Shown piece after piece: positions 524 to 19,786 of a stretch of DNA of 19,786 nt. The notes under the pieces are model-generated. The model was not told the origin of the DNA, made no database searches, and worked only from the letters and a program-made list of their open reading frames with translations. A program made the translations under genes and the position numbers. Every line of letters starts with the position of its first letter. Position 1 is the stretch's first letter. Source of the stretch: an uncultured Thermoplasmata archaeon (GTDB lineage Archaea > Thermoplasmatota > Thermoplasmata > RBG-16-68-12); the NCBI GenBank assembly GCA_963768855.1, contig CAVYJM010000022.1, positions 1 to 19,786 of the forward strand. Direction: 5' to 3'.

Positions 524-537
524 CCGACGGTCCCCCC

Positions 538-3334: not shown

Positions 3335-3338
3335 GGGC

Positions 3339-3563: not shown

Positions 3564-3571
3564 GGTAGGTG

Positions 3572-3593: not shown

Positions 3594-3643
3594 TCCTTGG
3601 TGCCGGGTCGGCGAATCCGGGCGCAGACGAGGCCCCGCCTCTG

Positions 3644-3937: not shown

Positions 3938-4594
3938 ATGAATCATCGCAAGGTTTCTGTGTCAGCCGCCGCGTTCCTGTCGCAAGACAGGCAGCGTAGA
4001 ACGAACGTTGTCATCGTCTCCGGCATTACTCTGATGCTGATGTTCAGCCTGATCTTGTTCGTCACTCCGGCCGCGAAGGCAGCCGGGCCATGTGAAGAGA
4101 CGGCCTATGCCAACGGACAACTTTTCTGCATTCACGTGACGAAGGTCATCACGAATCCGAGCGCGGGTCTGCTTGCGACCGCAGAACCGATCTACATCGC
4201 GTCCTACTTCCCCCTGCCGACAGGATGCGACACGACCAACCCGTCGAGCTGCGCGCCTGAGACCCTCCCATCCGGATACCAGCCGCTCTGCAACCCCTGC
4301 TTCCATGGAGACGGCCTTGACGCTTTCCCGTACCACGACCACGTTATGGAAGGCGCTCCTGGCTTTGGAATCCATGGCACGGTGGACGGCATGAAGGGCC
4401 CATGGGTACTGATCATCGCCGCGTACGTTCCCACCTACAGCAACCAAGTGGGATTTACGCCGTTCAAGAGCACGGCAGACATCGCTGCCGGTGAGCTTGC
4501 CGGGCACTTCCAGACCATCAATCCAAGTGGGGCCAACCCCTACGAGGTCAACACGGGGGTCGTACTCATGTTCGGCGTTCAGCCACTTGGGTAG
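3938..4594 (+). CDS. Putative secreted or membrane-anchored Cys/His-rich hypothetical protein, 218 aa
   Basis: ATG after GGAGTGAGGGA. Basic N-region, hydrophobic stretch and AKA-A cleavage-like site. 6 Cys; motifs CNPCFH and YHDH. Three hand-counted 60-nt lines gave 57-60% GC, visibly lower than the core genes. Confidence 0.8.
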   Translation: MNHRKVSVSAAAFLSQDRQRRTNVVIVSGITLMLMFSLILFVTPAAKAAGPCEETAYANGQLFCIHVTKVITNPSAGLLATAEPIYIASYFPLPTGCDTTNPSSCAPETLPSGYQPLCNPCFHGDGLDAFPYHDHVMEGAPGFGIHGTVDGMKGPWVLIIAAYVPTYSNQVGFTPFKSTADIAAGELAGHFQTINPSGANPYEVNTGVVLMFGVQPLG

Positions 4595-4599
4595 TCGAT

Positions 4600-4905
4600 C
4601 GCCGCGCGGTCGTCGACGCATCCTTCGGACCCGAGCTCGAGGCCGCCCTCCCTCCCCTCCGGAAGGGTCGTCGCTACGAGATCGGCGGGCTGACATACGC
4701 GGGGGTGCATCGCGGGTTCGATGCGGACCATCCCCGGGCCCGGTGGCTCCTCCACGACGGGCTGTGGGCCACCCGGGGCTTTGAGGACACGAAGGTCCTC
4801 CACAGTCCCGCCTTCGTCGACCGGTGCTTCGAACTGTGCCGGGAACTTGCGCTCCTCCACCGCTGGCTCGTGAAGGTGGACCGGCGGGCGCACGCCCGAC
4901 GATAG
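4600..4905 (+). pseudogene. 5'-truncated DUF2461-like gene remnant
   Basis: The frame of ORF 4705..4905 extended upstream reads RRAVVDASFGPELEAALPPLRKGRRYEIGGLTYAGVHRGFDADHPRARWLLHDGLWA...LHSPAFVDRCFELCRELALLHRWL. From memory this resembles the DUF2461 C-terminal half (RVPRGFDADHP...LLKH.GL...L.PL..WL). No N-terminal half or SD/start seen. Confidence 0.6.
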
Positions 4906-4943
4906 GGAGCGTCCTCCGCCTCGGGGCGAGCCGTGTGAGGCGC

Positions 4944-5534
4944 CTAGCTCGGGTTTCGAAGGACCGCGGTCGCGACGCCGTCCAGGCAAAGCGGGGACAT
5001 CTTTCCGACCGAATCCTCCTGCTTGCAGACGCGACTGAGGTCGCACTCGGGGCAGAATCGGGCGTGGAGGTCGTCCTCCGTGACGCCGAGGACGTCCGCG
5101 TCGTCGAGGAGCTCGTAGAGAAGCTTGAGGTACTTCCCCTCGGCGAGGCGGGGGACGTCGTACTTGGCCGCCTTGAGGCCGCCCTTCGCCGTCGTGTAGT
5201 ACTCATAGAGGCGGCGCGGACCCTTCGAGGCGTTGCAGGACCGGCAAATCCACACGGCGTTCTTCTCGTCCTGCGGCCCGTGGAAGGCACGAGGCATTAG
5301 ATGGTCCAGGGTCAGGTCCCCCGCGCGGCCGCAGTACAGGCAACGGTGGAAGTCATTGTGCTCCTTCACATACTCTCGGATCGAGTCCCAGGCGATCTCC
5401 CCGGACTGGAGCTTCTTGAAGCGCTCCATGACGAAGGCCCACTGCCGCTTGCCGACGCCCGCGGAGTCGGCGATGATCTTCGCGTACTGCCAGTACATCA
5501 GGTCTCTCAGATCGCGGATCGCGGCGGGCGGCAT
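4944..5534 (-). CDS. Standalone HNH endonuclease, 196 aa
   Basis: ATG after GAAGGAG. CLYC...LTLDHLMPRAFHG...NAVWICRSCNASKG matches HNH (DH..P, N, CxxC-N..K). Extra C-terminal Cys cluster CPEC..VC..C. Confidence 0.9.
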   Translation of the reverse strand: MPPAAIRDLRDLMYWQYAKIIADSAGVGKRQWAFVMERFKKLQSGEIAWDSIREYVKEHNDFHRCLYCGRAGDLTLDHLMPRAFHGPQDEKNAVWICRSCNASKGPRRLYEYYTTAKGGLKAAKYDVPRLAEGKYLKLLYELLDDADVLGVTEDDLHARFCPECDLSRVCKQEDSVGKMSPLCLDGVATAVLRNPS

Positions 5535-5799
5535 GCGGCTCCTTCGATGCGCGAGACGAGGCTGGACGGCTATGAAGACTCGGTACGCATTGTGACCACG
5601 TTTTGATGGTCTAGGCCGAGGGAACGGGAGTCAGGATGACTACACCTCAGAGGCCTTCCACCCCGAAGCTTGCGTCTCGTCGGGCTCAGGAAGTTACTTC
5701 TTTCCGAAGTCATTAGCCGCCCGTGAGAGCGGCAGGAACAGGACGCGGTGAGCCGTGAGGAAACGCGGAGCAGGTCGCTCGGACGCGAGGGGTCAGAGC

Positions 5800-6948
5800 A
5801 TGAAGGTGCACGAGCCGCGACTGAACGAGACGGCGTTCCTGGGCATCTGCTATCCGTCGAAGAGGCTCCTCCTGAATGAGAAACGCCTGTTCATGCCCGC
5901 GTCCACGACGAAGCTCTACACATCGTGGCTCGCGTGCGAGTCGCTCGGAGAGGATTCCTCGTTCCACTCCGAGTATTCCATCGAGGGACGGTCTCTGTAC
6001 CTCCGCCCGATGGGAAACCCCCTCCTCTCCGAGGAATCGATCGGCGAACTGCTCCACGAGATCGGTGGCAGGACGATCGAGGAGATCGTCTTCGCTAGTC
6101 CCTTCCTCCAGACTCCCCGCTACCCGTCCACCTGGGTGATCAGCGACCTCCAGGAAGCCTGGGGTGCGCCCCTCTCCGACGTCTGCTTCCATGAGAACTA
6201 CGCGACAGTCAGCGGCTCCGGAGGCACCCTGACGACGCCGTCCAGTTCCTACTACTCCGTCCGGACCGTGGAGGGAATCGAGAAACCCGTCCTCCAAGGC
6301 CGGATCGTCTCCCTCCCGCCCGGGTTCTCCGGTACGTTCGATTTCCCGATCCTGGAACCGGAGGACTTCCTCTTCCACTGGCTGCGGGAGCGGATCCCTG
6401 GGACGGCAATCAAGAAGCGGACGGGTCAGCTGCGGGGGTCTCCGATCCCCTTCGCGCAGGCGTCCTTGAAGGACGTGCTCCGCACGATGAACAAGAAGTC
6501 GTCGAACATCCTCGCGGAGCTCCTCCTCGCGCACTCGGCCCGCGCCCTGGGCACGCCCCTCGACTACGCGGACGCCCTGCCCGTGTTCACGGACGCGCTC
6601 CAGCGAATCGGCATCCGGGACGCGCGGCTGTACGACGGTTCCGGCGTCTCCCGATACAACCTCGTCTCCCCGCGGGGGACCGTCGCCCTCCTGGAAGCCT
6701 GCACGAAGTACGACTCGATCGTGGACTCGCTGCCGATTGGGGGAAAGGACGGGACCCTCGCCGGCCGGAAGCTCCCCCGCAGGATCCGGGCGAAGACGGG
6801 CTCCCTCACGGGAGTCCAGGCGCTCGCGGGCTACGACGGAGACGAGCCGTTCTCCGTCGTGATCAACCACGCGTCCGCGGACGAGCGCGAGCTGATCGAG
6901 GAGGTCGACCGGATCGTGTCGGGTCGCGGACCCGGGTCGCGCCGCTAG
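5800..6948 (+). CDS. dacB: D-alanyl-D-alanine carboxypeptidase/endopeptidase, peptidase S13 (PBP4/DacB family), 382 aa, no signal peptide
   Basis: ATG 5800 after GAGGGG. PBP motifs S35xxK (PASTTK), S234xN (KKSSN..AE), K332TG (AKTGSL), plus S13-typical DGSGVSRYNL. No hydrophobic N-terminus. Confidence 0.9.
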   Translation: MKVHEPRLNETAFLGICYPSKRLLLNEKRLFMPASTTKLYTSWLACESLGEDSSFHSEYSIEGRSLYLRPMGNPLLSEESIGELLHEIGGRTIEEIVFASPFLQTPRYPSTWVISDLQEAWGAPLSDVCFHENYATVSGSGGTLTTPSSSYYSVRTVEGIEKPVLQGRIVSLPPGFSGTFDFPILEPEDFLFHWLRERIPGTAIKKRTGQLRGSPIPFAQASLKDVLRTMNKKSSNILAELLLAHSARALGTPLDYADALPVFTDALQRIGIRDARLYDGSGVSRYNLVSPRGTVALLEACTKYDSIVDSLPIGGKDGTLAGRKLPRRIRAKTGSLTGVQALAGYDGDEPFSVVINHASADERELIEEVDRIVSGRGPGSRR

Positions 6949-7262
6949 ACGCGTCTCCTCAGGGGTGCGGTCATCCTCCGGTAGAGGATTGCCTCGACCA
7001 GCAGGGTCGGCACGAGCAGGATCGCGAAGAGGAGGAACGAGAAGCCGCCCTCCAGGATGATCACGGCCCACGGCAGGAAGACGCCGTCCAGGAGGACGCA
7101 CGCGGAGAGGTACAGGTTCCGGAGGGTCAGGGTGGTCAGCGACTCGTCCGCCATCCGCGCAAGCCGCTGGAGCCTCCAGCGGCTGTACCGGCGCATCAGG
7201 CCGTCGATCCCGCGAGGCTCCTCGGCCGAGTCGTCCCCGGCTGCGTCGTCAGTGGGCTTCAT
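6945..7262 (-). CDS. Small 2-TM hypothetical membrane protein, 105 aa, last gene of the permease/ATPase operon
   Basis: ATG 7262 after GGAGGTGG, overlapping the dppF stop region. Two hydrophobic segments. Its TAG overlaps the dacB TAG in CTAG at 6945-6948. Confidence 0.7.
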   Translation of the reverse strand: MKPTDDAAGDDSAEEPRGIDGLMRRYSRWRLQRLARMADESLTTLTLRNLYLSACVLLDGVFLPWAVIILEGGFSFLLFAILLVPTLLVEAILYRRMTAPLRRRV

Positions 7263-8274
7263 GGACCACCTCCGAAACGGACTCGGGGGGCGCCACGCCG
7301 AAGACGTGGCAGGCGACGAAGTGACCCGGTTCCGCCTCAAGCAGCTCCGGCTCCACCTTCTCACACACGTCCACCTTGTACGGGCAGCGGGGATGGAAGC
7401 GGCATCCCGAGGGCAGAGAGCGCAGGCTCGGCGGCTCTCCCGCAAGCGTGACCGAGAGGTCCTTCCCCTCGGCCTCCGCGATGTCGAGGAGCGCGCGGGT
7501 GTAGGGATGGAGCGGATTGGAGTACAGGGCCTTCGTGTCGGCCCGCTCGACGACCTTGCCCGCGTACATGACCATGACGAGGTCGCACATGTGGTACACG
7601 ACGGCCATGTCGTGCGAGATGAAGAGGTAGGTGAGGTCGAACTCGTGCTGCAGGGCAGAGAGAAGGCGGAGGATCTGGGCCTGGACCGAGACATCCAGGT
7701 TGGACGTGGGTTCGTCCAGGATCAGGAGCTTCGGCCGGAGGGCGACGGCGCGGGCGATGCCCAGGCGTTGCTTCTGGCCGCCCGAGAACTCGTGGGGGTA
7801 GCGGTAGAGCTGCGCCTTCTCGAGCCCGACCTTGGCCATCAGGTCGGACACCTCCCGGGTGAACTCCTCGCCGTGGAGCTTGAAGTGGACCTTCAGCGGC
7901 TCCCCGATGATGTCGATCGCCAGCTTCCTCGGGTTGAGGGAGGAGATCGGATCCTGGAAGACCATCTGGAAGTTGACCCGGAACTTGCGCAACTTCTTGC
8001 CACGCAATTCGGTCATCGGCTGTCCGAGCAGGACGACCGAACCGCCCGTCGGATCGATCAGGCGGGCGATCGTCCGCGCGAGGGTCGACTTCCCGCTCCC
8101 GGATTCGCCCACGATGCCGAGCGTCTTCCCGTGCTCCAGCGAGAACGTCACGCCGTCGACGGCCCGGATGTACCCTTTCAGGAGGGACAGGAGGCCGGAG
8201 CGGATCGGGAAGTGCTTCTTCAGCTCCTCGACCGCTAGGAGGCTCTGCGGAGCCGTCGTGGCTTCAGCTTCCAT
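7249..8274 (-). CDS. dppF: Dipeptide/oligopeptide ABC transporter ATP-binding subunit (DppF/OppF), 341 aa
   Basis: Walker A GESGSGKS, Q-loop VFQDP, signature FSGGQKQR, Walker B LILDEP, ISHD, and C-terminal HPY domain with GCRFHPRC...C...VAC. ATG 8274 overlaps the end of the upstream gene. Confidence 0.95.
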   Translation of the reverse strand: MEAEATTAPQSLLAVEELKKHFPIRSGLLSLLKGYIRAVDGVTFSLEHGKTLGIVGESGSGKSTLARTIARLIDPTGGSVVLLGQPMTELRGKKLRKFRVNFQMVFQDPISSLNPRKLAIDIIGEPLKVHFKLHGEEFTREVSDLMAKVGLEKAQLYRYPHEFSGGQKQRLGIARAVALRPKLLILDEPTSNLDVSVQAQILRLLSALQHEFDLTYLFISHDMAVVYHMCDLVMVMYAGKVVERADTKALYSNPLHPYTRALLDIAEAEGKDLSVTLAGEPPSLRSLPSGCRFHPRCPYKVDVCEKVEPELLEAEPGHFVACHVFGVAPPESVSEVVHEAH

Positions 8275-10549
8275 GGGCACCTTCCCCCTTCATCGGATGG
8301 AAGCAGGCGGCGGTCCGTCCCGGCGCCAGGGTCTCGAGGGGCGGGTCCGTCTTGAGGCACTCCTCCGTCGCCCGCTCGCACCGCGGCGCGAAGACGCAGC
8401 CGACCGGGATCGACTTCAGCTCGGGCAGGGAGCCCTGCATCGTGTAGTATTCGCCCTTCGGGACGAACGCGCCCCCCTTCCTCACCTTCGGCAGGGACTT
8501 GATGAGCCCGTCCGCGTACGGGTGCAGCGGCGCGGAGAAGACCTGGTCCAGAGGCCCCTCCTCGACGAGCTTCCCCGCGTAGATGACCCCGACCCGGTCG
8601 CAGAACCGGCGGATCACCCCGAGGTCGTGGGAGATGAGGAGGACGGAGACCCCGAGTTCCTCCTTGAACTTCTTGATCAGGTCGAGGATGTTCCTCTCCG
8701 TCACCACGTCGAGCGCGGTTGTCGGCTCGTCCGCGATGAGGAGCTTGGGGTTCGAGGCCATCATCATGCCGATCATGACCCGCTGCTTCATGCCGCCGGA
8801 GAGCTCGAACGGGTACAGGTCGACCGTCCGCTCGGGGTCCGGCACGAGCGCGCGCCTCAGGTCTCGGATCGCGAGCTTGCGGCAGATCTGCCGGGTCCGC
8901 TTGTCCGGAGCCCGGTCCGGGCCGAGCTTCCGCTTCGCGTACGTCTGGTAGAGCTCCCGGTACTTGAGCAGCTCCCCGCGCTGGTGCCCGGAGAATTTCT
9001 CGGCTACGGCGTCCGCGGGCGAATGCCTCGCCCCCTTCGGCGGCTCGACCACGGACTGGCAATGTCCGCAGATCCATTCGCCCTCCTTCACCGTGGCGCC
9101 GCAGTAATCGCACGGGCGCTCGACGAAGGAGCCCTCCATCTCGGCCACCGCCATCTCCAGGACGAGCTCGAACTGGTGCAGGAGATAGGTCTGGCTCATC
9201 TGGAACTCGACCTTGTAGGAGGGATGGAGCGAGTCGGAGACCTCCTGGAAGATCATCGCGATGTCCTTCCCCCGGACCGCGTTCATCTCGTTCTCCTTGA
9301 GCGTGAGCAGGTTCGTGTACACGGCGGCGTTCGCCGGGTCCCGCACGAAGAAGACGTCGCCGGACGAGATCTGCGTGGACCGCATCGGGAGCAGGCCCAT
9401 GATCCCCAGCGCGACGGTCGACTTGCCGCTCCCGCTCTCCCCGATGAGCCCGTAGGCCTCGCCGCGCTTCACCTCCAAGCTGACGTTCCTCACGGCGTGG
9501 ACCGGGCCCTCGTACGTGCGGTAGCTGATCGAGAGGTCGTCCACCTTGAGCAGGGTGCCCGCCGGCGCGGGCCCCGGGGACTCCACGTGGGCCACTGCGG
9601 GCAGTCTGCGGGCATCCTGGGAGAGCCACCGCCTCGAGGTCGGGTCGAACACGTCCCGCAGCCCGTCCCCGAGCAGGTTGAACGCAAGGGACGTAGTGAT
9701 CAGGAAGATGCCCGGGAAGATCGGGTACCACCAGGCGACGAAGAGATAGCTCAGGCTCTGGGAGATGAGGAGCCCCCACTCGGCCGTCCCCGGGGTGGCG
9801 CCGAGGCCCAGGAAGCTCAGCGCGGCGATGGACAGGAGGACGCTCCCCAGGTCCGCGGTGGCCTGGATGATCGCGGGGGAGAGCACGTTCGAAAGGATGT
9901 GGCGGAAGAAGATCGACGTCCCGCTGAGGCCCGAGCTCCGGGCGACTTCGACGAAGTCCCGGTGCTTCATCTTGCGGGTCTCGCCGTAGATGAGACGAGC
10001 GTACCACGCCCACCAGGTTGCGATCATCGCGTACACGATGTGCTCGAGGGACGGGCCCAGCGCCGCGGCGAGGGTCAGCGCGAGCACGATGCTCGGAACC
10101 GCGAGGAACACGTCCGTGATGCGCATGAGGACCTCGCCGAACGTCTTCTCGAAGTACCCCGCGATCCCGCCGATCACGATCCCGAGGAGGGCCGACGGGA
10201 TCATCACCTCGAACGGGAGGACCATGTCGAGCTGCGCGGCGTAGACGGACTTGCTGAAGAGGTCGGTCCCGAGCTCGTCCGTCCCGAAGAGATGCTGCAA
10301 GGAGGGCGGCAGCAGGGCGATGTTCGTGTCCGTCGGCCACCGCTGTTGGAGCGCGCCATTCACGTTGACGTACACCGGATGCTGGAGGGCGATGAAGGGC
10401 GCCAGGAGCGCGATCACGACGAACGCGAGGAGGAGGATGAGGCCCACCATGGAGAGCTTGCTCGTTCGGAGGGCCCTGAAGGTCAGGTTCCCTTCCCGGC
10501 CCATGACCCGGAGCCGCTCCGTCGCACTGCCCCACCGGGCCGCCGCCAT
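8264..10549 (-). CDS. dppC/dppD: Fused DppC/OppC permease + DppD/OppD ATPase with Zn-ribbon insertion, 761 aa
   Basis: ATG 10549 lies 1 nt after the dppB stop, with GAGGAGGGGG upstream. Permease motifs HLFGTDELGTD, FVEVARSSG, FNLLGDGLRDVFDP. Then GESGSGKS, LSGGMKQR, LLIADEPTTALD, ISHD, HPY and GCVFAPRC...C...AAC. Confidence 0.92.
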   Translation of the reverse strand: MAAARWGSATERLRVMGREGNLTFRALRTSKLSMVGLILLLAFVVIALLAPFIALQHPVYVNVNGALQQRWPTDTNIALLPPSLQHLFGTDELGTDLFSKSVYAAQLDMVLPFEVMIPSALLGIVIGGIAGYFEKTFGEVLMRITDVFLAVPSIVLALTLAAALGPSLEHIVYAMIATWWAWYARLIYGETRKMKHRDFVEVARSSGLSGTSIFFRHILSNVLSPAIIQATADLGSVLLSIAALSFLGLGATPGTAEWGLLISQSLSYLFVAWWYPIFPGIFLITTSLAFNLLGDGLRDVFDPTSRRWLSQDARRLPAVAHVESPGPAPAGTLLKVDDLSISYRTYEGPVHAVRNVSLEVKRGEAYGLIGESGSGKSTVALGIMGLLPMRSTQISSGDVFFVRDPANAAVYTNLLTLKENEMNAVRGKDIAMIFQEVSDSLHPSYKVEFQMSQTYLLHQFELVLEMAVAEMEGSFVERPCDYCGATVKEGEWICGHCQSVVEPPKGARHSPADAVAEKFSGHQRGELLKYRELYQTYAKRKLGPDRAPDKRTRQICRKLAIRDLRRALVPDPERTVDLYPFELSGGMKQRVMIGMMMASNPKLLIADEPTTALDVVTERNILDLIKKFKEELGVSVLLISHDLGVIRRFCDRVGVIYAGKLVEEGPLDQVFSAPLHPYADGLIKSLPKVRKGGAFVPKGEYYTMQGSLPELKSIPVGCVFAPRCERATEECLKTDPPLETLAPGRTAACFHPMKGEGAHGS

Positions 10550-10550
10550 C

Positions 10551-11579
10551 CTAACCGGCCCCCTCCTCGGAGAACCGGATGCGCGGTTCGATCCAAGCGT
10601 ACGCCGCGTCCACGACAATGCTCCCGAGGACGTACGCCAGCGAGATGATGAACGTGTACGCGACGACGACGTTGTAGTCGAAGCCGATGATTGCCTGGTA
10701 GACCCAGTACGAGAACCCGGCCATGCCGAAGATTTCCTCGATGAAGACCGTGCCGCCGAGCAGGCTCCCGAAGCTCAGGCCCACGATCGTCAGAGTCGGC
10801 CCCATGGCCGCGCGGAAGGCGTAGCGCCGCACGATGATCTTCTCCGGCACGCCCTTGGCCCGCAGCGCCTTGACGAAGGGCGACGACAGAATCTCGAGCA
10901 TGCTCGACCGCGCCATGCGGAGCACGAGGGCGAATCCGGTGAAGCCGAGGGCGAATACCGGGAGGATGAGGTGCACGCAGGCCGACACGAAGTCCGGCAG
11001 GTTCCCAGTGAGGAGGGAATCGAGGGGATAGAACCCGGTGATGTGGGTCGGGGGCGTGTTGGTCGGCCCGAGCAGCCCGGTCAGCGGGAGGACGTGCAAG
11101 TTGACCGCGAACACCAGCTGGAGGATGACCGCCAGGAGGAACGAGGGGAAGGAAAGCCCGATGTAGGCGATCGTCCGCGAGACGATGTCCCCGAGCTTGT
11201 TCATCCGCGTGGCGGAGAGCATCCCCAGGAGGATGCCTACCGGGGTGGACCAGGCAATCGCGAGGACGACCAGGCCCAGGGTAGCCGGGAGGAAGAGCTC
11301 GATGCCCGTGTTCACGCTCATGCGGAGAGAAAGGGAATAGCCCAAGTTCCCCTCGAACAGGCTCGTGAGGTAGTACCAGAACTGCACGGGGATCGGATCG
11401 TTCAGGTGGAGCCGCTCCCTGATGGCCTCGAGGGTCGCCGGGGACGCCTTGATGCCCGCGTAGAGCTTCACCGGGTCCGACGGCGCCACGTGGGTCACGA
11501 CGAAGATAAGGACGATGACCCCGAGGAGGACCGGAATCGCCGAGATGAGGCGCCGCAGGATGAACTCCCACATCTTCAT
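10551..11579 (-). CDS. dppB: Dipeptide/oligopeptide ABC transporter permease (DppB/OppB), 342 aa
   Basis: FILRRLISAIPVLLGV, LHLNDPIPVQFWYY, GNLGYSL, HLILPVFALG, EAA-like FVKALRAKGVPE, EEIFGMAG, DYNVV. SD GGGTGA. Confidence 0.95.
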   Translation of the reverse strand: MKMWEFILRRLISAIPVLLGVIVLIFVVTHVAPSDPVKLYAGIKASPATLEAIRERLHLNDPIPVQFWYYLTSLFEGNLGYSLSLRMSVNTGIELFLPATLGLVVLAIAWSTPVGILLGMLSATRMNKLGDIVSRTIAYIGLSFPSFLLAVILQLVFAVNLHVLPLTGLLGPTNTPPTHITGFYPLDSLLTGNLPDFVSACVHLILPVFALGFTGFALVLRMARSSMLEILSSPFVKALRAKGVPEKIIVRRYAFRAAMGPTLTIVGLSFGSLLGGTVFIEEIFGMAGFSYWVYQAIIGFDYNVVVAYTFIISLAYVLGSIVVDAAYAWIEPRIRFSEEGAG

Positions 11580-11887
11580 CTCAGGTCACCCCATCTCGAC
11601 TACCGAGCCTCTCTTCTCCCGGTATCGGAGTGCCGTCCGCCCCGCAAAGCATGCCGCCGTCGCGTCTCGGTTCCCATTCCGGCGCGGCTCCTCCGCCCCT
11701 TCCCGCTAGGGAGCGGGCTTCTCGTACATAACCCTCTGGTACGTAACGCGTGCCCGCGGCCCATGCGTGCCTGCATCTGGAGGGAATCTCGTCACGGGTC
11801 GCGGACGGCGGTCCGCCACGGGCGGCCTCGGAACCCGTAAGTAGCGCCACGCGTTGCGCGGTGCGTCCAACGGAACGGGGGTTGGGT

Positions 11888-14461
11888 GTGCAGGACGCCC
11901 TGGACGGCTGCGGCGACGCGCGATGCGATTCGGCCGCAGATCACGCGTTCGCGCCTCCCGACACACCGCCGCAGTACGCACGGGAGCGGACGTTCCGTGA
12001 GTTGCATCTCAAGCTCGACATTTCCATCGATGACGAAGCGCGGACCGTCTCCGGGACCGCGGTGCACCGCCTCGCGCCCATCAACGACGGCCTGCGCGAG
12101 GTCGTCTTCGACCAGCAGGGTCTCCACATCCGCGGCGTGCGCGACGATGCGGGCCGCGCGCTGGAGTGGGAGATCCACGGCGACATCCTGTACGTGCGCC
12201 TCGCAAAGTCTCGCAAGGCCGGCGAGGCCTTCGAGCTCCGCATCCGCTACGCCGGCAAGCCGCGGAAGGGCCTCTTCTTCACGGCCCCGGATGCCGGATA
12301 TCCGCAGAAGCCCCGCACGGTCTGGACCCAGGGGGAGGAGATGGACAATCGCTCCTGGTTCCCCTCGTACGACTATCCGAATCAGAAGTTCACGACCGAG
12401 ATCATCGTCACCGTGAAGGAGGCGTACCGGGCCATCGCGAACGGCCACCTGGTTTCCGAGAAGCACGACCCGAAGAAGGGCACACGGACCTTCCACTGGC
12501 TCCAGGACAAGCCCCACCCGAACTACCTTGTGGGGCTGGTGGTGGGCGAGTGGGACATGAAGGAGTGGGACGCGGACGGCATCCCGGTCCAGGCGTACGT
12601 GCCCAAGGGCTATGGGAAGTACATCGACCTCGCCTTCTCCCGCGTGCCCGAGATGGTCCGCTTCTACGGACGCGTCACGGGGCTGCGGTTCCCCTGGGAC
12701 AAGTACGCCCAGGCGTGCGTCCCCGAGTTCATCTTCGGCGCGATGGAGAACACGACGATCACAATCTTGAACGAGAGTTACCTGACGGACGAACGGGCCT
12801 ACCCGGACTACGACGCCGACTCCCACCTGTCCCACGAGCTCGTGCATCACTGGTTTGGAGACTGGATCACATGCAAGAGCTTCGGTCACGTATGGCTCAA
12901 GGAGGGCTTCGCGAACTACTTCGAGTGCCTATGGTGGGAGGAGCGCCAAGGGAAGGACGAGTTCCTCGTCCACCTCGAGGAGATGCGACAGCGCTACTTC
13001 GAGGAGGCCGAGAAGGACTACCTGCGCCCCATCGTCACCCACACGTTCGTCGACGCGAAGGAGATGTTCGACTCGCACACGTACAGCAAGGGCGCCGCGG
13101 TGCTCCACATGCTCCGTTCCCTCCTGGGCGACGACCTGTGGTGGAAGGGGATCCGCGCCTACGTGGCGGCCCATGGGACGGCCGCCGTGGAGACGGACGA
13201 CTTCCGGGTCGCCATGGAGGCGGCGACCGGGAGGACGCTCGACGGATTCTTCGAGCAGTGGCTCTACCGACCCGGTCACCCCGAGTTCGAAGTCTCCTGG
13301 TCCTGGGACCCCAGGGGACGGCAGGCCGAGGTCCGCGTGCGGCAAGTACAGGAGACGAAGGACGGCGTCCCCGTGTTCCGGATGCCCGTGACCTTGGAGT
13401 TCGCCTCGGAGGACCGCGCGTGGCGGGAGACCGTGCACCTGGAGCGGGCGGAGCACATCTTCCGCTTCTCCTGCCGCGACCGACCCGAGGCGGTCCTGTT
13501 CGACCCCGACGGCGTCCTGCTCAAGCGTCTCGTCTTCCGGCGGAGCGTAGCGGAATTGCGCTGGGTGCTCGCGCATTCGGCCAGCTCATGGGCGCGCATG
13601 GAGGCCTGTGCCGCCCTCGGCAGGTCCGTGGAAGCGATCGACGTGATCCCCGCACTCGAGGAGGCGCTCCGCGGGGATTCGCAATGGGCCGTGCGACGCG
13701 CCGCCGCGCTCGGCCTGGGCGATGTCGGAACGCCCGCGGCCCGGGACGCGCTGCTCCGATCCCTCGCGGATTCCGACAGCCGCGTCCGCGTGGGGATTTA
13801 CGAGGCGCTAGGCCGGTTCCGCAAGGATGACACCGCCTTCGGGGCGCTCGCCAAGGCGTACGGGGATGACGGCAAGTATTACCCCATGGCCGCCGCGGGA
13901 GCCGCCCTCGGATCGACACGGCACCTCCGAGCGTTCGAGACGATTGTCGCGGGGATGGACCGTCTGTCCCATGCGGAGACGGTTGCGGCTCGCGCTGCGG
14001 AGGGTCTGGTCGCGCTGAGGGACGAGCGCGGCGTCGAGGCCCTCGTCCGGGGGACGCGATATGGCGAGCCCGAGATGCGGCGGTATGCCAACGCGATTGC
14101 CCTGGGTCGGCTTGGGCGGGCGCTGGAGGGGCCAAGGGCCGATGTGCTAGAGCACCTTGTCGGCCTGACGAAGGACGTGAACATCCGCACGAAGCTCGGG
14201 GCCATCGAAGGACTCGGTGAACTGGGTTCTCCCCTGGCCATCCCGGCCCTCGAGAAGGTGTACGAGGGCGAGGTCTTGTGGAGTTTCAAGAAGCGGGCAC
14301 GCCGCGCCCTCCGCAAGATCCGCGAGGCGCAGGAGAACCGTGCGCCCTCGCTCGAGCAGCAGAAAGCGCTGGATGCCCTCGAAGAGGACACCCGGGAGCT
14401 CCGGCGGCGTCTCGCAGCGCTCGAAGCGGCGGTCGATGGACTCGCGAAGTCGCGAACGTGA
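11888..14461 (+). CDS. pepN: M1 family Zn aminopeptidase (aminopeptidase N-like) with C-terminal HEAT repeats and coiled coil, ~857 aa
   Basis: GAMEN, HELVH-x18-E, YSKGA. HEAT-like repeats (WAVRRAAALGLG, SRVRVGIYEALG, IRTKLGAIEGLG). Likely start GTG 11888 after GGGGGTTGGG; no signal peptide. Confidence 0.93.
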   Translation: MQDALDGCGDARCDSAADHAFAPPDTPPQYARERTFRELHLKLDISIDDEARTVSGTAVHRLAPINDGLREVVFDQQGLHIRGVRDDAGRALEWEIHGDILYVRLAKSRKAGEAFELRIRYAGKPRKGLFFTAPDAGYPQKPRTVWTQGEEMDNRSWFPSYDYPNQKFTTEIIVTVKEAYRAIANGHLVSEKHDPKKGTRTFHWLQDKPHPNYLVGLVVGEWDMKEWDADGIPVQAYVPKGYGKYIDLAFSRVPEMVRFYGRVTGLRFPWDKYAQACVPEFIFGAMENTTITILNESYLTDERAYPDYDADSHLSHELVHHWFGDWITCKSFGHVWLKEGFANYFECLWWEERQGKDEFLVHLEEMRQRYFEEAEKDYLRPIVTHTFVDAKEMFDSHTYSKGAAVLHMLRSLLGDDLWWKGIRAYVAAHGTAAVETDDFRVAMEAATGRTLDGFFEQWLYRPGHPEFEVSWSWDPRGRQAEVRVRQVQETKDGVPVFRMPVTLEFASEDRAWRETVHLERAEHIFRFSCRDRPEAVLFDPDGVLLKRLVFRRSVAELRWVLAHSASSWARMEACAALGRSVEAIDVIPALEEALRGDSQWAVRRAAALGLGDVGTPAARDALLRSLADSDSRVRVGIYEALGRFRKDDTAFGALAKAYGDDGKYYPMAAAGAALGSTRHLRAFETIVAGMDRLSHAETVAARAAEGLVALRDERGVEALVRGTRYGEPEMRRYANAIALGRLGRALEGPRADVLEHLVGLTKDVNIRTKLGAIEGLGELGSPLAIPALEKVYEGEVLWSFKKRARRALRKIREAQENRAPSLEQQKALDALEEDTRELRRRLAALEAAVDGLAKSRT

Positions 14462-14472
14462 AAATCGAAGGG

Positions 14473-14500
14473 GCAGGCTCCCGGTCTCCCGGGCGCCTGC
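14473..14500 (-). terminator. GC-rich hairpin between convergent pepN and dppA; possible terminator or transcript-end stabiliser
   Basis: GCAGGCTCCCGG-TCTC-CCGGGCGCCTGC pairs 11 of 12 bp. On the minus strand the loop is GAGA (GNRA), followed by CCCTTCGATTTT. Confidence 0.45.
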
Positions 14501-14569
14501 GTTGGGTCTGTCGGGGCGGCAGGTCCCCTGGCCGCGATCGGCCCGTGTGGACTTCTCTCTCACCTGGCC

Positions 14570-16322
14570 CTAGGCGCGCAGGAGCTGCTGGTACACGTTC
14601 AGGAAGTTCCGGAACGGTTCGGCCGCCGACTGCGGAGCGACCGCAGCCCCGACCGATAGCGAGCTCGCTGCCACGCTCGGGCTGGGCAGGTAGAACCAGA
14701 AGTTGTACGTGATGATCGCGTTGTACGTGAAGTTCGTTAACGTCTTGGACACCGCGGCGATCGCCTGCGCCACACACATGTAGATCAGGCTGGGGTTCTG
14801 GTTCTGCACGGTCCAGACCGTGTGGTAGTCCGCGATCTCCCGAGCCAGGTCCGTGGTGCTCTGCGCGTCCGTGAGCGCGTTGTCGATCGTCGCGTTCGCG
14901 TACACGGTGTGGTACGTGTCCCCGCCGATTGCCGCACTGCCCACGAACGGGAGCGCGTAGTCGCTCGGGTCGTTGTAGTCCGGTCCCCACGTTTCGATCA
15001 TCAGGTCCCACCCGTTCGTCTTCTGGGTCGCGCTGCGCACGGCGTCCGGAACCGAGTGGATGTCTAGGGTGATCCCGATCTGCTGCAGGGCCGCCTGGTA
15101 CAGCTGGGCGACGGTCGGCTGCCACGCGATGGAGGAAATCGCATAGAACGACACGGCCGCGCCTCCGAACCGCAGGCCATTTCCGCCTTTCGTGAAGCCT
15201 GCGGCATCCAGAATCGCCGCCGCCTTCGTCAGGTTATAGCTGTAGTACTTCGTGGGCATCGAATCTTGGCCGAGGTAGATCTGCACTGGAACCGGCCCGT
15301 TCAACGGAGTGGCGTAGCCCTGGAACGCGTTCGCGATGACCTGGTCGTACGGGAAGGCCCAGCTGAGGGCCTGCCGCACGCTCGCGTTGGCCATGAACGT
15401 GTGGGTCGAGTTGATGTCGAACCCGACCATGTACGTCCTGGGGACCGGGGTCACCTTGAGCTGGACGTTCGTCGCGTTGGCCAGGGAGGCCGCCTGGGTG
15501 AACGGGATGTCCGCGATCGTCGCGTCCCCGCTCCTCGCCGCCGAGATGGCGGTCGAGGGTGCCTGGTTCAGGAGCATGACGACCTTGTCGTACCGCGCCC
15601 CACTCGTGTTGCCCCAATAATTCGGGTTCCGGACCAAGACAATCTGCTGCGCCTTGGTCCAAGACTGGACCATGTACGGGCCCGTGCCCACCGTGTTGTT
15701 CGTCATCCACGCGTTGTCCTGGCCATCCACGATGCCACCGTTCGCCTCCACCGCCTTCTTGTCGACAATCGCGTTCGGTTCGGCTGTCGCGAGGGTCTGA
15801 AGGAAGGGGTTGAAGACGTGGGTCAGCTTGAACTGGACCGTGTACGTGTCCACCTTCGTGATGCTCGACACGTTGAGGTCCTGGCTGTCGATCCATGCCA
15901 CGCCGGACGAGGGTGAGTTGATCCGGAGGACCCGCTGGAACGAGTAGACGACGTCGTCCGCGGTGAAGGGGTCGCCGTTGCTAAACTTCACGTTCTGCCG
16001 CAGGTGGAAGGTGTACGTCAGTCCGTCCGCGGAGATCCCGCCGTTAGCGACGGTCGGGATCTGGAGGGCGAGGGCCGGGAGCGAACTCGTTGATCGTGGT
16101 CAGCGGATAGCTGAGGAGCGTGTCGTACGAGTTCTGGATCGGGATGAACGATCCGGAGTCGTACGCGTCGGCCGGGTCCAAGGTCGAGATATCATATTGC
16201 GAGTAGTACACGAGCGTGCGTTGGGCCGGCGGTGGAGTCGACAAGAGGAAATACGCCGCGATCCCGGCAACCACCAAAATGACAACGACGGACACAACGA
16301 TAATCTTCGTTCGCTTAAGCAT
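14570..16322 (-). CDS. dppA: Peptide ABC transporter substrate-binding protein (family 5, DppA/OppA), ~583 aa, with one +1 frameshift near 16075-16079
   Basis: ATG 16322 (SD GGGAGGGGGGT): MLKRTK + TM anchor + TLDPADAYD...IQNSYDTLL..EFAP. After removing 1 nt it continues ALALQIPTVANGGISADGLTYTFHLRQNVKFSNGDPFTADDV, GTGPY, VRQALSWA, WGPDYNDP. Read error versus true pseudogene is unresolved. Confidence 0.9.
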
Positions 16323-16363
16323 TGTATACCCCCCTCCCTTCCCCCGCGGGACCGCAGGACCGC

Positions 16364-16369
16364 TATATA
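16364..16369 (-). promoter_or_regulatory. TATA-like box of dppA
   Basis: Minus strand AAGAAACGGG-TATATA-G in ~68% GC surroundings, ~42 nt upstream of the ATG. Purine-rich BRE-like stretch immediately upstream. Confidence 0.55.
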
Positions 16370-16615
16370 CCCGTTTCTTAGAACTCTTCTCGAACCGCAT
16401 CCGCGTGAATCGTCTGCGTCTCGCCCTCCTGATTTTTCGGCGGGACCCGGTCGGCGTGTCGCGCATATCGTTGGCCATCTCCGCCGAGGAGTCGCCGCTC
16501 TCCGCGCGGCAGAGAATCTCTTAAGCTCGCGAGCCGCATCCCAAGGGCGAAGGCGAGGCGGTCGCCCGTGATCCTGAAGAGCGACTCCGTGAAACTCGAC
16601 GCGAGGATCGGTGAC

Positions 16616-17683
16616 GTGCGTCTCGCGTCGGCCAAGGTGCACCTCCTGAGCATCCCGCTCCGCCACCCGTTCGTGATCTCTCTCGGCACCCAGCGCGACT
16701 ACATGGGGACGATCGTGGAGCTCGAATCCGAGGAACACACGGGATTCGGGGAGGGCTCCACGATCCCGCAGATCACGGGCGAATCTCCGGAGGCGGTCGC
16801 GGCCACCGCGAAGTTCATCCTGAGCGCCCTGGCGGGGCGGACCTTCGGCGGCCTGGAGGAGTTCGCATCCGCCGTGCATTCGGCGATCCACGCGAGCCCG
16901 ACGGCGAAGAGCGCGATCGACATCGCCGCCCACGATCTCCTCGGGAAGGCCTGGGGTCTCCACGTGATCCAGATGCTCGGCGGCCGCTTCGCCGATCTTC
17001 CGACGAGCCTCACGATCGGCCTGGGCACCGTGGAGGACAGCCTGCGGCAACTCAAGGAGTTGCAGGCCGAGAAGTGTCAGATCATCAAGGTCAAGGTCGG
17101 CGGGAACCTCGAGGAGGACATCCGAAGGGTGCGGGCCGTCTCGGAGCACCTCCAGAGCGAGCGCTTCTACGTCGACGCGAACCAGGGATACTCCCTGCGG
17201 GACGCGCTTCGCCTGTGCTCGGTCCTGCTGGAGTGCGGCGCGTTGTTCTTCGAGCAGCCCCTCGGCCGCAATGCCCTCGAGGACCTCCGCGCCCTGCGGA
17301 AGTCGTCGAACGTTCCCGTGATGTTGGACGAGAGCATCTCTTCGCCGGGGGACGTCATCGAGGCGGTGCGCCGCGAGGCCGCGGACTTCGTGAACGTGAA
17401 GCTGACCAAGAGTGGCGGCATCCGGAACGCGTTGAAGACGCTGATCACCGCGCAGGCGTACGGCATCGAGGCGATGGTCGGCTGCATGGTCGAGGGGAAG
17501 CTGGGCACGGCGGCGGGGCTGTGCGTGGCGTCCTCCGTCGGGAACGTGAAGTTCACGGACCTCGACGGCTACACGTCCATGGTCACGCAGCCGTTCGAGG
17601 GAGGGCTGACCTACAAGGACGGGATCAACAGCCCCGTGCGGGGCGTGGGGATGGCCGTGGAGAAGGTGCCGGCCAACTGGTGA
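16616..17683 (+). CDS. Dipeptide epimerase (L-Ala-D/L-Glu epimerase family, enolase superfamily MLE subgroup; YcjG/YkfB-like), ~355 aa
   Basis: KVK, DANQG, EQP, DES, NVKLTK, GCMVE and the DLD motif diagnostic of dipeptide epimerases; PF.IS.G loop. Start probably GTG 16616 (GAGG 9 nt upstream, MRLASAKVHLLSIPL); alternative GTG 16568. Confidence 0.9.
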   Translation: MRLASAKVHLLSIPLRHPFVISLGTQRDYMGTIVELESEEHTGFGEGSTIPQITGESPEAVAATAKFILSALAGRTFGGLEEFASAVHSAIHASPTAKSAIDIAAHDLLGKAWGLHVIQMLGGRFADLPTSLTIGLGTVEDSLRQLKELQAEKCQIIKVKVGGNLEEDIRRVRAVSEHLQSERFYVDANQGYSLRDALRLCSVLLECGALFFEQPLGRNALEDLRALRKSSNVPVMLDESISSPGDVIEAVRREAADFVNVKLTKSGGIRNALKTLITAQAYGIEAMVGCMVEGKLGTAAGLCVASSVGNVKFTDLDGYTSMVTQPFEGGLTYKDGINSPVRGVGMAVEKVPANW

Positions 17684-17684
17684 C

Positions 17685-18971
17685 TCACCGGGCGACTTGC
17701 GGAACGAGCTGGCCCCGCAGCAGATCCTGCAGCGTCTCCCGCTCCCGCACGAGGCGCGCCTGGCCGTCTGCGATGAGGACTTCCGCGGGCAACGGTCGGG
17801 TGTTGTAGTGGCTCGACATCGTGAACCCGTACGCGCCGCAGTTCAGGAACGCGAGCAGGTCTCCCCGCTCCAGGGCGGGGAGCCTCCGGTCCTTCCCCTG
17901 GATGTCCGTGTTCTCGCATATCTGGCCGGTCACGTTCACCCGGACACTCCGCCTCGCATCGAGCTTGTTCGCCGGGAGGATCTCGTGGTAGGCCCCGTAG
18001 AGGGCGGGACGCAGGAGCGTGTTCATCCCCGCATCGCAGCCGACGAAGCGCTTCGCGGACGTCTTCACGTGCGTGACCGAGGCGAGCAGGACCCCTGCGT
18101 CCCCGACGAGGTAGCGACCCGGCTCGATCACGAGCGTCGGATCGCCGATTTCGGGGTTGCTCGCAAGCTTGTGCTCGTACGCGTCCACGACCTTCTTGGC
18201 GAGCTCCTGGACGGGGAGGCCTTTCTGGCTGATCTTGTCCGGGGTGCCGAACCCTCCGCCGAGATCGATGAAGTCGAGCTCGATGTGGAGCGCCTTCGCG
18301 ATCCTCGCCGCGATGCCTGTGAGGCGGTCCGTGATCGCGGCCCAATAAGGCGTCTCGAGGACGTTCGACCCGGCCATCATGTGCACGCCGAGGCGTTCGA
18401 TGCCTGCCTCCTTCGCGAGGCGATACGCCTTCAGGGCCTCTCGCTCCCGCATCCCGAACTTCGCGTCCGGTCCGGCGGTCACGACCCCGGGGAACTTCCC
18501 CTTGCCGAAGCCCGGGTTGATCCGGAAGCAGAGGGCGCGCGGTTTGCCGAACTTCAGGAGGCGTTCGAGGAGGGGACCGTCGTCCAGGTTGATCTCCGCG
18601 CCGGACTCGAGCCCGTACCGCAGCTCCTCGTCCGAGTTGTAGTTCCCGGAGTAGAGGAGGCGGTCCCCCGGGAATCCCGCGGTCTTCGCGAGCAGGATCT
18701 CCGCGGGGCTCGCGCAGTCCGCCCCCGCGCCCTCCCGCCGCAGGAGGTCCAGGACGGACAGGTTGTTGTTCGCCTTCACCGCGTAGTTCGCCCGGAAGTT
18801 CTTCCTCCGCGCGGCGAAGGCTCCGTGGATCCGGCGATAGTTGTCCTGGATCCTCCGGGCGGAGTACACGTAGAGCGGCGTGCCGAAGCGGGAGGCGAGG
18901 TCGACCGAGCTGATCCCGTCCACGTACATCACGCCGTTCCGGTTCTCGAGGTAATCGTAGATTCCGGGCAC
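17685..18971 (-). CDS. lysA: Diaminopimelate decarboxylase, 428 aa
   Basis: GTG 18971 after GGAGGA. FGTPLYVYS, PLP-lysine YAVKAN, KFG, HMMAGS, IDLGGGFG, EPGRY, NTLLRPALY, G.ICE, GAYG..MSSHYN.RP. The upstream part of the track ORF is a shadow of the EamA gene. Confidence 0.93.
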   Translation of the reverse strand: MPGIYDYLENRNGVMYVDGISSVDLASRFGTPLYVYSARRIQDNYRRIHGAFAARRKNFRANYAVKANNNLSVLDLLRREGAGADCASPAEILLAKTAGFPGDRLLYSGNYNSDEELRYGLESGAEINLDDGPLLERLLKFGKPRALCFRINPGFGKGKFPGVVTAGPDAKFGMREREALKAYRLAKEAGIERLGVHMMAGSNVLETPYWAAITDRLTGIAARIAKALHIELDFIDLGGGFGTPDKISQKGLPVQELAKKVVDAYEHKLASNPEIGDPTLVIEPGRYLVGDAGVLLASVTHVKTSAKRFVGCDAGMNTLLRPALYGAYHEILPANKLDARRSVRVNVTGQICENTDIQGKDRRLPALERGDLLAFLNCGAYGFTMSSHYNTRPLPAEVLIADGQARLVRERETLQDLLRGQLVPQVAR

Positions 18972-19022
18972 GGGGATTCCTCCTTCCGTCTTCCGCGGCA
19001 CCCCGGTGAGTTTCGGAGGAGG

Positions 19023-19028
19023 ATATAA
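19023..19028 (-). promoter_or_regulatory. TATA-like box in the lysA/eamA divergent spacer
   Basis: TTATAT on the minus strand ~52 nt upstream of the lysA GTG; the only AT-rich island in the spacer. Confidence 0.4.
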
Positions 19029-19110
19029 TCCAGTCGTCCGTACCTTCGACCAGCGTGCATCACAGGCCGTTCGCAATCCTGATGCGTCCGGTCCCGCTCC
19101 CCGGGCCACC

Positions 19111-19752
19111 ATGGCGCTCGAGTGGCTGGGACTGGCCCTGGCGGCCGCGGTCCTCAACGGCTTCAGCGTCCTCGCCGCGAAGCCGAGCGCGGACCGCCTC
19201 GGTCCGTGGGTCATGTGGCTGGGCGCCATCCTGACCGAGGGGATCGCCTTCGGCGTGGCAGGGCTCCTGTCCCCGCGCGGGCCCGGGACCGCCGACGCAC
19301 GCCTCGTCCTCGCCGCGGTCTCTGCGGGGATCCTGGGCGCGGTGGGGTACCTGACCTTCTTCGCGGGGATGCGACTCGGGAGCGTCGGCCTCGTCGGCAC
19401 GATCTCCGCGGCCGCGCCGGTGCTGACCGTGGTCCTGAGCGTCCTCTTCCTCGGGGAGACGCTGGGGGCGCTCCAGATCCTGGGGATCGCGATGACGGTC
19501 GCGTGCGTCCTGCTCCTCACCGCGGAGCCGGGACGTGGGCGTGTCCCTCGCCGCCTGGCCGTGGTCCTCAGCCTCGGCAGTTTCCTGGTGTGGGGCCTCT
19601 GGGCCTTCCTGGTGAAGGCGAGCGTGAGCGCCCTCGGGGAGGGCGACCTCTTCCTCTTCCTGGCCTCCGGGTACCTGGGCGTCTCCGTGGTGGCCGCGAT
19701 TCGCTGGAGGAAGGAGGCCGCGCCCCGGGATCCGCCCTCCCGGCCGACGTGG
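19111..19752 (+). CDS. EamA/DMT-family transporter, 3'-partial (absent from the ORF track because it has no stop)
   Basis: ATG 19111: MALEWLGLALAAAVLNG...GYLTFFAGMRLGSVGLVGTISAAAPVLTVVLSVLFLGETLGALQILGIAM...LVWGLWAFLVK. First EamA repeat complete, second started. Confidence 0.9.
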
Positions 19753-19786
19753 AGCAAGCACCGTAACCGAACGAATAGGGTTACAC
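19753..19786. other. Probable residual Oxford Nanopore ligation-adapter sequence (technical artefact)
   Basis: AGCAA-gcac-CGTAAC-c-GAACGAA resembles the adapter reverse complement AGCAATACGTAACTGAACGAAGTAC. Abrupt drop in GC and loss of EamA-like coding at the very end of the window. Confidence 0.75.

Follow-up and report, generated by a model that had tools for sequence, protein, structure and literature searches.

A candidate salvage module for bacterial peptidoglycan stem peptides in an archaeon of the class Thermoplasmata

The question raised by the 19,786-bp stretch of DNA analyzed here (the window, which is the entire contig C22 of the source assembly G000) is why an archaeon without murein should keep a penicillin-binding-type S13 peptidase, a peptide importer, a dipeptide epimerase and the diaminopimelate decarboxylase LysA side by side. 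The answer that we favor is that this cluster is probably a salvage or catabolic module for the stem peptides of bacterial peptidoglycan, which bear D-amino acids and contain meso-diaminopimelate (mDAP), in an archaeon that does not synthesize murein. A murein-feeding interpretation of this kind had been put forward in the first-pass annotation of the sequence; comparative evidence supports it, and none of the tests that could be run went against it. The frames of the window were picked by their third-position GC content and then scanned against Pfam and NCBIfam, and the gene cluster itself is confirmed: the genes named previously are all where they had been placed, and both ends are exact to the nucleotide, the S13 gene opening with ATG at 5800 and the lysA gene, on the other strand, with GTG at 18971.

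We regard the physical linkage of these genes as stronger evidence than counts of their joint occurrence. An identical cluster order is present on contig C21 of the same bin and in three independently assembled congeners (G009, G014 and G023), and soil metagenome contigs also carry the locus, together with the genes of the window's left flank; these genes have not come to lie together by chance. The conserved linkage for which the first-pass annotation had proposed to look therefore exists in close relatives, and it is also found, rearranged, in distant ones. Locus L034 (54% GC) has the order SIS-epimerase-S13-small open reading frame-DppF-DppCD-DppB-solute-binding protein-LysA, with a GH3 gene nearby, and its Dpp proteins, binding protein and LysA are orthologous to those of the window (62-77% identity). 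In family f25 (34% GC), genes for a PKD-SBP5 protein, the epimerase and S13 are followed by convergent genes for LysA and an M55 D-aminopeptidase and then by an SH3-NlpC/P60 gene; the S13 of this family is about 33-35% identical to that of the window, and neither DapB nor DapF was found in f25. The linkage of S13, epimerase and LysA thus persists through three gene orders in distant lineages. The S13 island of the Sysuiplasma-like family f14 includes Opp, NagB, a BadF-type kinase, S12, NagA, GH3, SH3-NlpC/P60 and GNAT genes, and also an epimerase, a MurQ-like SIS protein, NamZ, AnmK and an FAD oxidase, and further members of the S13 clade adjoin Amidase_2, NamZ or GH20 genes. Throughout, the S13 clade is accompanied by a Dpp/Opp importer and by enzymes known to act on components of murein, and LysA joins them where the host has no synthesis of diaminopimelate (DAP). 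As to occurrence, among 44 genomes of the family the same four carry both S13 and the epimerase ortholog, and six, these four included, carry LysA; a 401-genome sample of the class has eight carriers of the compact S13, which belong to three families and all have LysA (132 of the 401 do overall). No statistical claim is made from these figures because the eight carriers amount to at most three or four independent lineages.

The S13 protein (5800-6948, forward strand; 382 amino acids) is a compact DD-peptidase of the PBP4/DacB type. It scores 139 bits against PF02113 (cut-off 22.8) and is only just above the cut-off of TIGR00666 (108.3 against 107.8), and its SxxK (PASTTK, Ser35 and Lys38), SxN (SSN, Ser234 and Asn236) and KTG (residues 332-334) motifs are invariant across the 31 members of its clade. 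A stop codon directly precedes the open frame, whose start (MK...), common to four copies, lies 34 residues before the active-site serine. The AlphaFold2 model of the protein has a pLDDT (predicted local distance difference test) value of 92.6, and its top Foldseek matches, 3a3d, 1w5d, 2ex2 and 1w79 (TM-score 0.72-0.79, E about 1e-28), are the PBP4 proteins of Haemophilus influenzae and Escherichia coli, PBP4a of Bacillus subtilis and the DD-peptidase R39 of Actinomadura. Next, with a TM-score of 0.55, come predatory endopeptidases of Bdellovibrio. The window protein shares the fold and the three motifs of PBP4/DacB, PBP4a and R39 but has no signal peptide, is about 70-85 residues shorter and is only about 20-24% identical to them; in a comparison with chain 3a3d, about 43 of the missing residues fall between SxxK and SxN. 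Neither a signal peptide nor a transmembrane or other hydrophobic segment, such as export of an S13 enzyme calls for, was found in it, and it is predicted to be cytoplasmic. Its closest homologs form a discrete clade of signal-less proteins of 361-397 amino acids, 31-95% identical to it, and homolog scores fall from 253 bits within this clade to 104 bits or less for the bacterial PBP4s of 450-550 amino acids; as far as seen, the clade appears confined to Thermoplasmata. The trimming of stem peptides had been assigned to this DacB-like protein in the first-pass annotation, and its identity as an S13 enzyme is borne out by motifs and fold, with the amendment that an enzyme in the cytoplasm would act after import.

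It should be noted that the S13 gene differs between the two copies of the locus in the bin far more than its neighbors do. The proteins encoded at 5800-6948 of the window and at C21:91952-93091 are 68% identical, as compared with 96% for the HNH-domain protein, 98.8% for DppB, 94% for the M1 aminopeptidase and 96% for the binding protein. The epimerase of the window is 96% identical to that of G009 and 82% to the C21 copy, and its S13 is only 78-79% identical to the S13 of G009 despite the 96% for the epimerase. Such divergence suggests that the history is mosaic or that S13 evolves fast.

LysA (17685-18971, reverse strand; 428 amino acids) reaches 389.7 bits against the equivalog model TIGR01048, for which the cut-off is 297.9, and its best solved relatives are the DAP decarboxylases 2p3e (263 bits) and 1twi (248 bits), which stand above BtrK and D-Orn/D-Lys decarboxylase. 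A genome-wide search for dapA, dapB and dapF, suggested in the first-pass annotation as a check, found none of them: DapF (PF01678), DapB (PF05173 and TIGR00036) and DapA (PF00701) have no match over the cut-off in G000, G009 or G023, and all three were also negative, where searched, in G013 (98% complete) and G003 (94% complete). A single fragment scoring 35 bits with a dap model, below the cut-off, lies at a contig end of G023. The searches responded as expected in 14 control genomes, and in the in-class control G195 dapA, dapB, lysA and dapF lie within 5 kb. Because DapA, DapB and DapF all went undetected, the LysA of the window's genus appears to be an orphan with no visible endogenous source of meso-DAP, a compound that is, to our knowledge, essentially confined to murein and its own biosynthesis. 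The lack of DapF by itself was considered as a diagnostic and discarded, since LysA without DapF is common in the S13-free families f24, f17 and f28; the orphan assignment rests for this reason on DapA, DapB and DapF together. Among the genomes of these three families in the class sample is G102, complete in one contig, which has a LysA-like gene and neither DapF nor DapB.

Three further observations concern lysine and LysA. A LysW gene at G000:C18:107326-107475 (L027; 55.8 bits, over the cut-off) is found in none of four congeners; there may be LysW-route synthesis of lysine or arginine in G000 only, or the gene, being short, may have escaped detection in the congeners. A second LysA-like gene of G009 (G009:C73:5186-7184; L052 and L055) scores 323 bits with TIGR01048, which is over the cut-off, is 33% identical to the LysA of the window and directly adjoins a gene of the Asp/Glu-racemase family, with which it could form another pair for handling D-amino acids. 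An EamA/DMT transporter gene (19006-19785, forward strand; PF00892), cut by the end of the contig, lies next to lysA in the window, and an EamA gene adjoins LysA in C21, G009 and G023 too.

All the domains expected of a Dpp/Opp-type importer are present: a binding protein of family 5, a pair of permease domains and two ATPases that end in oligo_HPY tails. Its membrane and ATPase components are encoded on the reverse strand by genes for a DppF/OppF-type ATPase of the ATP-binding cassette class (7249-8280; ABC_tran and oligo_HPY), a 784-amino acid fusion of a DppC/OppC permease with a DppD/OppD ATPase (8264-10618; OppC_N, BPD_transp_1, ABC_tran and oligo_HPY in one frame) and a DppB/OppB permease (10551-11579; BPD_transp_1_N and BPD_transp_1). 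The fusion is also present in L034 and L037, and identity to the C21 copies is 86% for DppF and, as given above, 98.8% for DppB. A small open reading frame for a membrane protein (6945-7262, reverse strand; 105 amino acids with two C-terminal hydrophobic helices) overlaps the stop codon of DppF and has homologs, 44-54% identical, in the same position in L034, L036 and L037. The family-5 solute-binding protein (14570-16322, reverse strand; SBP_bac_5, 263 bits) has a single transmembrane segment at residues 7-25 and is the only protein with such a segment or a signal when compared with S13, the M1 aminopeptidase, the epimerase and LysA, in none of which an export signal was found. The closest matches of known structure are binders of peptides, nickel or opines. 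In C22 the gene has one extra C in a run near 16079 (CCC, as against CC in C21), and the resulting frameshift leaves the N-terminal anchor or signal part in a different frame from the rest of the protein; on C21 the gene is uninterrupted, and four of the best-matching metagenomes gave short fragments of relatives with no indel reported, for which coverage of this C-run is unproven. G000 has several further Dpp/Opp systems. The three 5' or divergent intergenic regions of the cluster were compared for a shared operator, and they have in common only 9-10-mers, as expected in GC-rich DNA.

Two enzymes that could act on imported peptides lie between and beyond the importer genes. The epimerase (16568-17683, forward strand; 371 amino acids, MR_MLE_N and MR_MLE_C) belongs to the MLE subgroup of the enolase superfamily, and its IKVKVG, VDAN, FEQP, LDES, VKLTKSGG and FTDLDG segments align with the dipeptide epimerases 3jva, 2zad and 1tkk. 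They contain a KxK motif, Asp/Glu/Asp metal ligands, a second lysine and a DxD motif (FTDLDG); we take the DxD motif to bind the ammonium group of the dipeptide, and the KxK, Asp/Glu/Asp and Lys residues to be the catalytic ones of the subgroup. The best NCBIfam model for the protein is that of L-Ala-D/L-Glu epimerase, at a score below its cut-off, and the best solved relatives include epimerases of other dipeptides. The dipeptide epimerase of the first-pass annotation is therefore upheld as to class, through the MLE residues and the DxD motif, but the curated cut-offs for L-Ala-D/L-Glu specificity are not reached. The M1 aminopeptidase (11750, or from a GTG at 11861, to 14461, forward strand; Peptidase_M1_N, Peptidase_M1 and, in C-terminal HEAT repeats, HEAT_2) has intact GAMEN and HELVH...E (HExxH...E) motifs in the alignment and no transmembrane segment. 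A paralog elsewhere in G000 is 61% identical, and M1 is an addition in the window's genus, since the orthologous cluster of L034 has no such gene.

Other candidate activities are encoded elsewhere in the genome. LdcA had been counted as missing in the first-pass annotation, but a full two-domain protein of the S66 LdcA family is encoded outside the cluster at G000:C6:661866-662906, where its gene adjoins that of the archaeal primase small subunit; the distribution of S66 only partly tracks that of LysA. An M55 D-aminopeptidase gene, also outside the cluster, lies beside GatD/GatE. No candidate for the missing hydrolase was found near the S66 gene, the M55 gene or a second epimerase gene of G000, where the neighbors are housekeeping or unrelated genes.

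Taken in order, the steps of the proposed pathway would be as follows. The membrane-anchored binding protein would capture stem peptides outside the cell, and the DppB/DppC-D/DppF importer, perhaps with the small membrane protein as a subunit, would take them in, a role for which its family speaks. The cytoplasmic S13 enzyme, to judge from its fold and motifs, would remove the C-terminal D-Ala from D-Ala-D-Ala ends or, alternatively, open D-Ala-mDAP cross-links in imported peptide dimers; an intracellular DD-peptidase would make sense if D-Ala-D-Ala pentapeptides or dimers cross-linked through D-Ala-mDAP are imported. The S66 LdcA-family enzyme and the M55 D-aminopeptidase could trim further. 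The γ-D-Glu-mDAP bond would have to be cut by an enzyme for which the window's genus offers no candidate, a place that a YkfC-like NlpC/P60 protein would fill in the sister clusters. The epimerase would turn the L-Ala-D-Glu-type dipeptide into its L,L form, the M1 aminopeptidase would hydrolyze L,L peptides, and LysA would decarboxylate the freed meso-DAP to L-lysine. Because no dapA, dapB or dapF was found, this route may be a main source of lysine.

Several points weigh against such a pathway. The most serious concerns the γ-D-Glu-mDAP hydrolase: G000 has no match to PF00877 (NlpC/P60) or PF00246 (M14), and tblastn searches of G000 and its congeners with the NlpC/P60 proteins of the sister clusters were negative. 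The gap at MpaA or YkfC that the first-pass annotation had recognized is therefore real as far as these families go, YkfC-like NlpC/P60 proteins being present in the sister clusters only, and this step is the main hole in the pathway of the window's genus as well as a lead to a new enzyme. For the glycan branch, G000 has no match to the NamZ or AnmK families, and tblastn with the NamZ, AnmK, SIS, NagA, NagB and Amidase_2 proteins of the sister clusters found no match in the window's genus, nor were S12 homologs of the sister-cluster proteins found there; the genus appears to carry a peptide-only version of the module. A search for alanine racemase in G000 gave only weak cross-matches to a LysA paralog on C7 with the same pyridoxal phosphate-dependent fold, and no Asp/Glu racemase was found. 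The epimerase scores 204 bits with NF041118 and 97.6 with NF011708, for which the cut-offs are 500 and 343, and shares only 34-37% identity with its counterparts in the sister clusters; at the position of Arg24 of YkfB, which we take to be the 20s-loop arginine in contact with the side chain of Glu, it has a residue other than arginine in PFVISLGTQRDY, with an arginine three residues on, in an alignment that is uncertain. The binding protein is generic in type, apart from being frameshifted in the C22 copy. LysA without DapB or DapF is found in the S13-free G013, among unrelated genes, and in a complete f24 genome, and in family f14 LysA adjoins DapB and is probably biosynthetic. Related genomes are, moreover, not independent observations, and with G000 estimated to be 93.6% complete the absences reported for it are not proven.

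Some of these points are what would be expected of a locus for the general uptake and degradation of oligopeptides, in which S13 and the epimerase would handle D-residues whatever their source (aged or racemized proteins, non-ribosomal peptides) and LysA is present for unrelated reasons or acts on free environmental DAP or another substrate. We consider this unlikely, although it is the alternative that survives best. The generic Dpp/Opp types of the binding protein and transporter and the several other such systems in G000, the M1 enzyme as a broad aminopeptidase with a close paralog, an epimerase whose specificity cannot be read from its sequence and whose solved relatives act on various dipeptides, and the retention of LysA in G013, which has no cluster, could all be accommodated by it. 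It gives no reason, however, for the continued linkage of S13, epimerase and LysA through three gene orders in lineages whose GC content spans 34-66%, or for the company of the S13 clade, which stands among NamZ, AnmK, MurQ-like and YkfC-like enzymes for which we know of no substrate other than murein. Nor does it readily explain a decarboxylase for meso-DAP, with its essentially murein-bound occurrence, in a genome from which the biosynthetic route is missing.

A use of these enzymes in the archaeon's own envelope, as in a surface polymer containing D-amino acids or DAP, or in defense against β-lactam-like compounds, is very improbable. PBP4-type enzymes normally remodel the wall of the organism that produces them, but the S13 protein has no export signal, and no penicillin-binding transpeptidase was found in G000 and four congeners. 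The DapA, DapB and DapF enzymes that such a polymer would need for its DAP are missing. One gene of the Mur_ligase_M type is indeed present in G000 and in its congeners, but in carriers and non-carriers of the cluster alike, and the cluster itself is accessory, being present in 4 of the family's 44 genomes. In G003, a congener without the cluster, a second Mur-ligase-like match and a gene for an M14 peptidase are about 1.2 kb apart (G003:C26:14911-17378; L046).

The host is an archaeon of the class Thermoplasmata, as the first-pass annotation had supposed in calling it a probable archaeon. The assembly (2.87 Mb in 24 contigs, about 66% GC, 93.6% complete with 7.7% estimated contamination) has an archaeal small-subunit ribosomal RNA gene on a 1.1-Mb contig, homologous loci occur in metagenome-assembled genomes of Thermoplasmata, one of them on a contig that also encodes ribosomal protein S3Ae, and the absence of a transpeptidase noted above agrees with this assignment. 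The strong S13 homologs that carry names are from a Thermoplasmata archaeon, a Candidatus Thermoplasmatota archaeon and Candidatus Sysuiplasma superficiale. A haloarchaeal origin was also considered and ruled out, the proteins not being acidic. The DNA sequencing runs that share most words with the window come from metagenomes of wetland, freshwater sediment and soil and contain no more than 24% of these words; no RNA run was listed as carrying them. That the contig is bacterial contamination, reporting ordinary bacterial murein recycling, has a vanishingly small chance of being right despite the estimated contamination of the bin and the shortness of C22 as a separate contig, since the locus recurs on the 112-kb contig C21 and in independently assembled congeners, all named strong S13 homologs are from Thermoplasmata, Thermoplasmatota or Sysuiplasma, a sister cluster shares its contig with the archaeal S3Ae, bacterial PBP4s score no more than 104 bits and the redundancy of the bin is of the sister-strain kind, with copies 88-99% identical.

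The salvage of bacterial stem peptides, which remains our preferred reading, can be compared with systems already known. In B. subtilis the dppABCDE-ykfABCD genes encode the M55 D-aminopeptidase DppA, the Dpp importer, the LD-carboxypeptidase YkfA, the L-Ala-D/L-Glu epimerase YkfB and the γ-D-Glu-diamino-acid endopeptidase YkfC. As in that system, the window links a Dpp-type importer with a D-specific peptidase and an MLE-type dipeptide epimerase; the f25 cluster adds M55 and SH3-NlpC/P60 proteins, and G000 has M55 and S66 proteins encoded elsewhere. It differs in that its host has no murein, that the module's conserved peptidase is of family S13 and cytoplasmic, that LysA is linked and apparently an orphan, that the window's genus has no equivalent of YkfC and that an M1 aminopeptidase is inserted. 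The recycling and catabolism of murein tripeptide in E. coli involve Opp/MppA, LdcA, MpaA, YcjG, PepD and Mpl, and the course proposed here is similar: a stem peptide would be imported, D-Ala removed, γ-D-Glu-mDAP split, L-Ala-D-Glu epimerized and the product hydrolyzed. Unlike E. coli, the window host has no M14 match for MpaA, its end product is apparently lysine made by LysA rather than recycled tripeptide, and re-use of the Mpl type would not occur because there is no wall to rebuild.

Two papers describe organisms without murein that attack that of bacteria. The recently described secreted archaeal peptidoglycan hydrolases Woldo and Danwoldo kill bacteria, and whether bacteria are then the resource is a question posed there; carboxypeptidases, recycling and catabolism are not mentioned and import is not treated (PMC12352652). 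In both cases murein-less archaea have enzymes aimed at bacterial peptidoglycan, but Woldo and Danwoldo are secreted lytic weapons (PMC12352652), whereas the module of the window would serve import followed by intracellular catabolism. Anaerobic ciliates have laterally acquired a set of genes for peptidoglycan degradation comprising pbp4b, NamZ, anmK, murQ, nagB, pepN and lysA, so that here too a murein-less host has a D-Ala-D-Ala carboxypeptidase, an M1-type peptidase and LysA (PMC13198582). The ciliates are eukaryotic phagotrophs in which no gene clustering is reported (PMC13198582), whereas the host of the window is an archaeon with an ATP-binding cassette importer and operon-like linkage. 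No description of an archaeal pathway for murein catabolism was found in a literature search that left subscription journals largely uncovered, so that a prior description is possible, and there is no mention of peptidoglycan in papers dealing with the diversity of Thermoplasmatota or with Lutacidiplasmatales. We regard the module as stem-peptide catabolism of a bacterial type that would have been transplanted into murein-less archaea and tied to their supply of lysine.

Peptidoglycan is among the largest pools of nitrogen and carbon in the microbial necromass of soils and sediments, and its breakdown is normally credited to bacteria. A conserved module for its import and catabolism would offer a concrete and testable genetic handle on whether archaea feed on bacteria. 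With the module comes a separate, well-delimited clade of apparently intracellular enzymes of the S13 penicillin-binding type, and its missing γ-D-Glu-mDAP hydrolase is worth hunting for. We further suggest, as a tentative proposal of which we are distinctly less confident, that some wall-less Thermoplasmata are lysine auxotrophs supplied from murein by a cytoplasmic S13 DD-endopeptidase and an orphan LysA, with a hydrolase of a new family in the window's genus; these archaea would then depend for their nutrition, across domains, on dead or captured bacteria (necromass or prey).

The relation of C22 to the rest of its bin should also be considered. The segment C22:4957-19683 is collinear with C21:91109-105829, with 88% nucleotide identity, and the counterpart of the whole window (1-19786) is G000:C21:90060-105829; all genes from SnoaL to EamA are in identical order on C21, with 68-99% amino acid identity. 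Contigs C1, C5, C13, C14, C16, C19, C20 and C23 are likewise 88-99% identical to parts of larger contigs of G000, and the bin mixes closely related strains or species. Because so many small contigs are copies of this kind, C22 is most likely, if not provably, a haplotype co-binned from a sister strain or sister species rather than a true duplication; in either case the locus is one of this archaeal genus.

The remaining genes of the window lie to the left of S13. Directly upstream of it is a gene for an HNH-domain protein of 196 amino acids (4944-5534), which is found directly 5' of S13 in C22, C21 and G009, with 88-96% identity, and also near LysA in G013 and G023. Further left, a gene for a ParE toxin (3083-3361) and one for a ribbon-helix-helix antitoxin (3339-3749) make up a block that is an insertion in C22 (3008-4956), C21 having about 56 bp at this place, and the SnoaL-like protein is encoded before this pair. 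The left end of the window has a Fer4 protein and a 293-amino acid membrane protein. A long frame at 65-1105 on the reverse strand overlaps the better supported frame of the membrane protein (538-1419, reverse strand) and has its Fer4 matches in the C-terminal third; since the gene calls of L036 and L037 show a separate Fer4 protein of 152 amino acids beside a protein of 295 amino acids, the real Fer4 gene probably occupies about 65-523 only.

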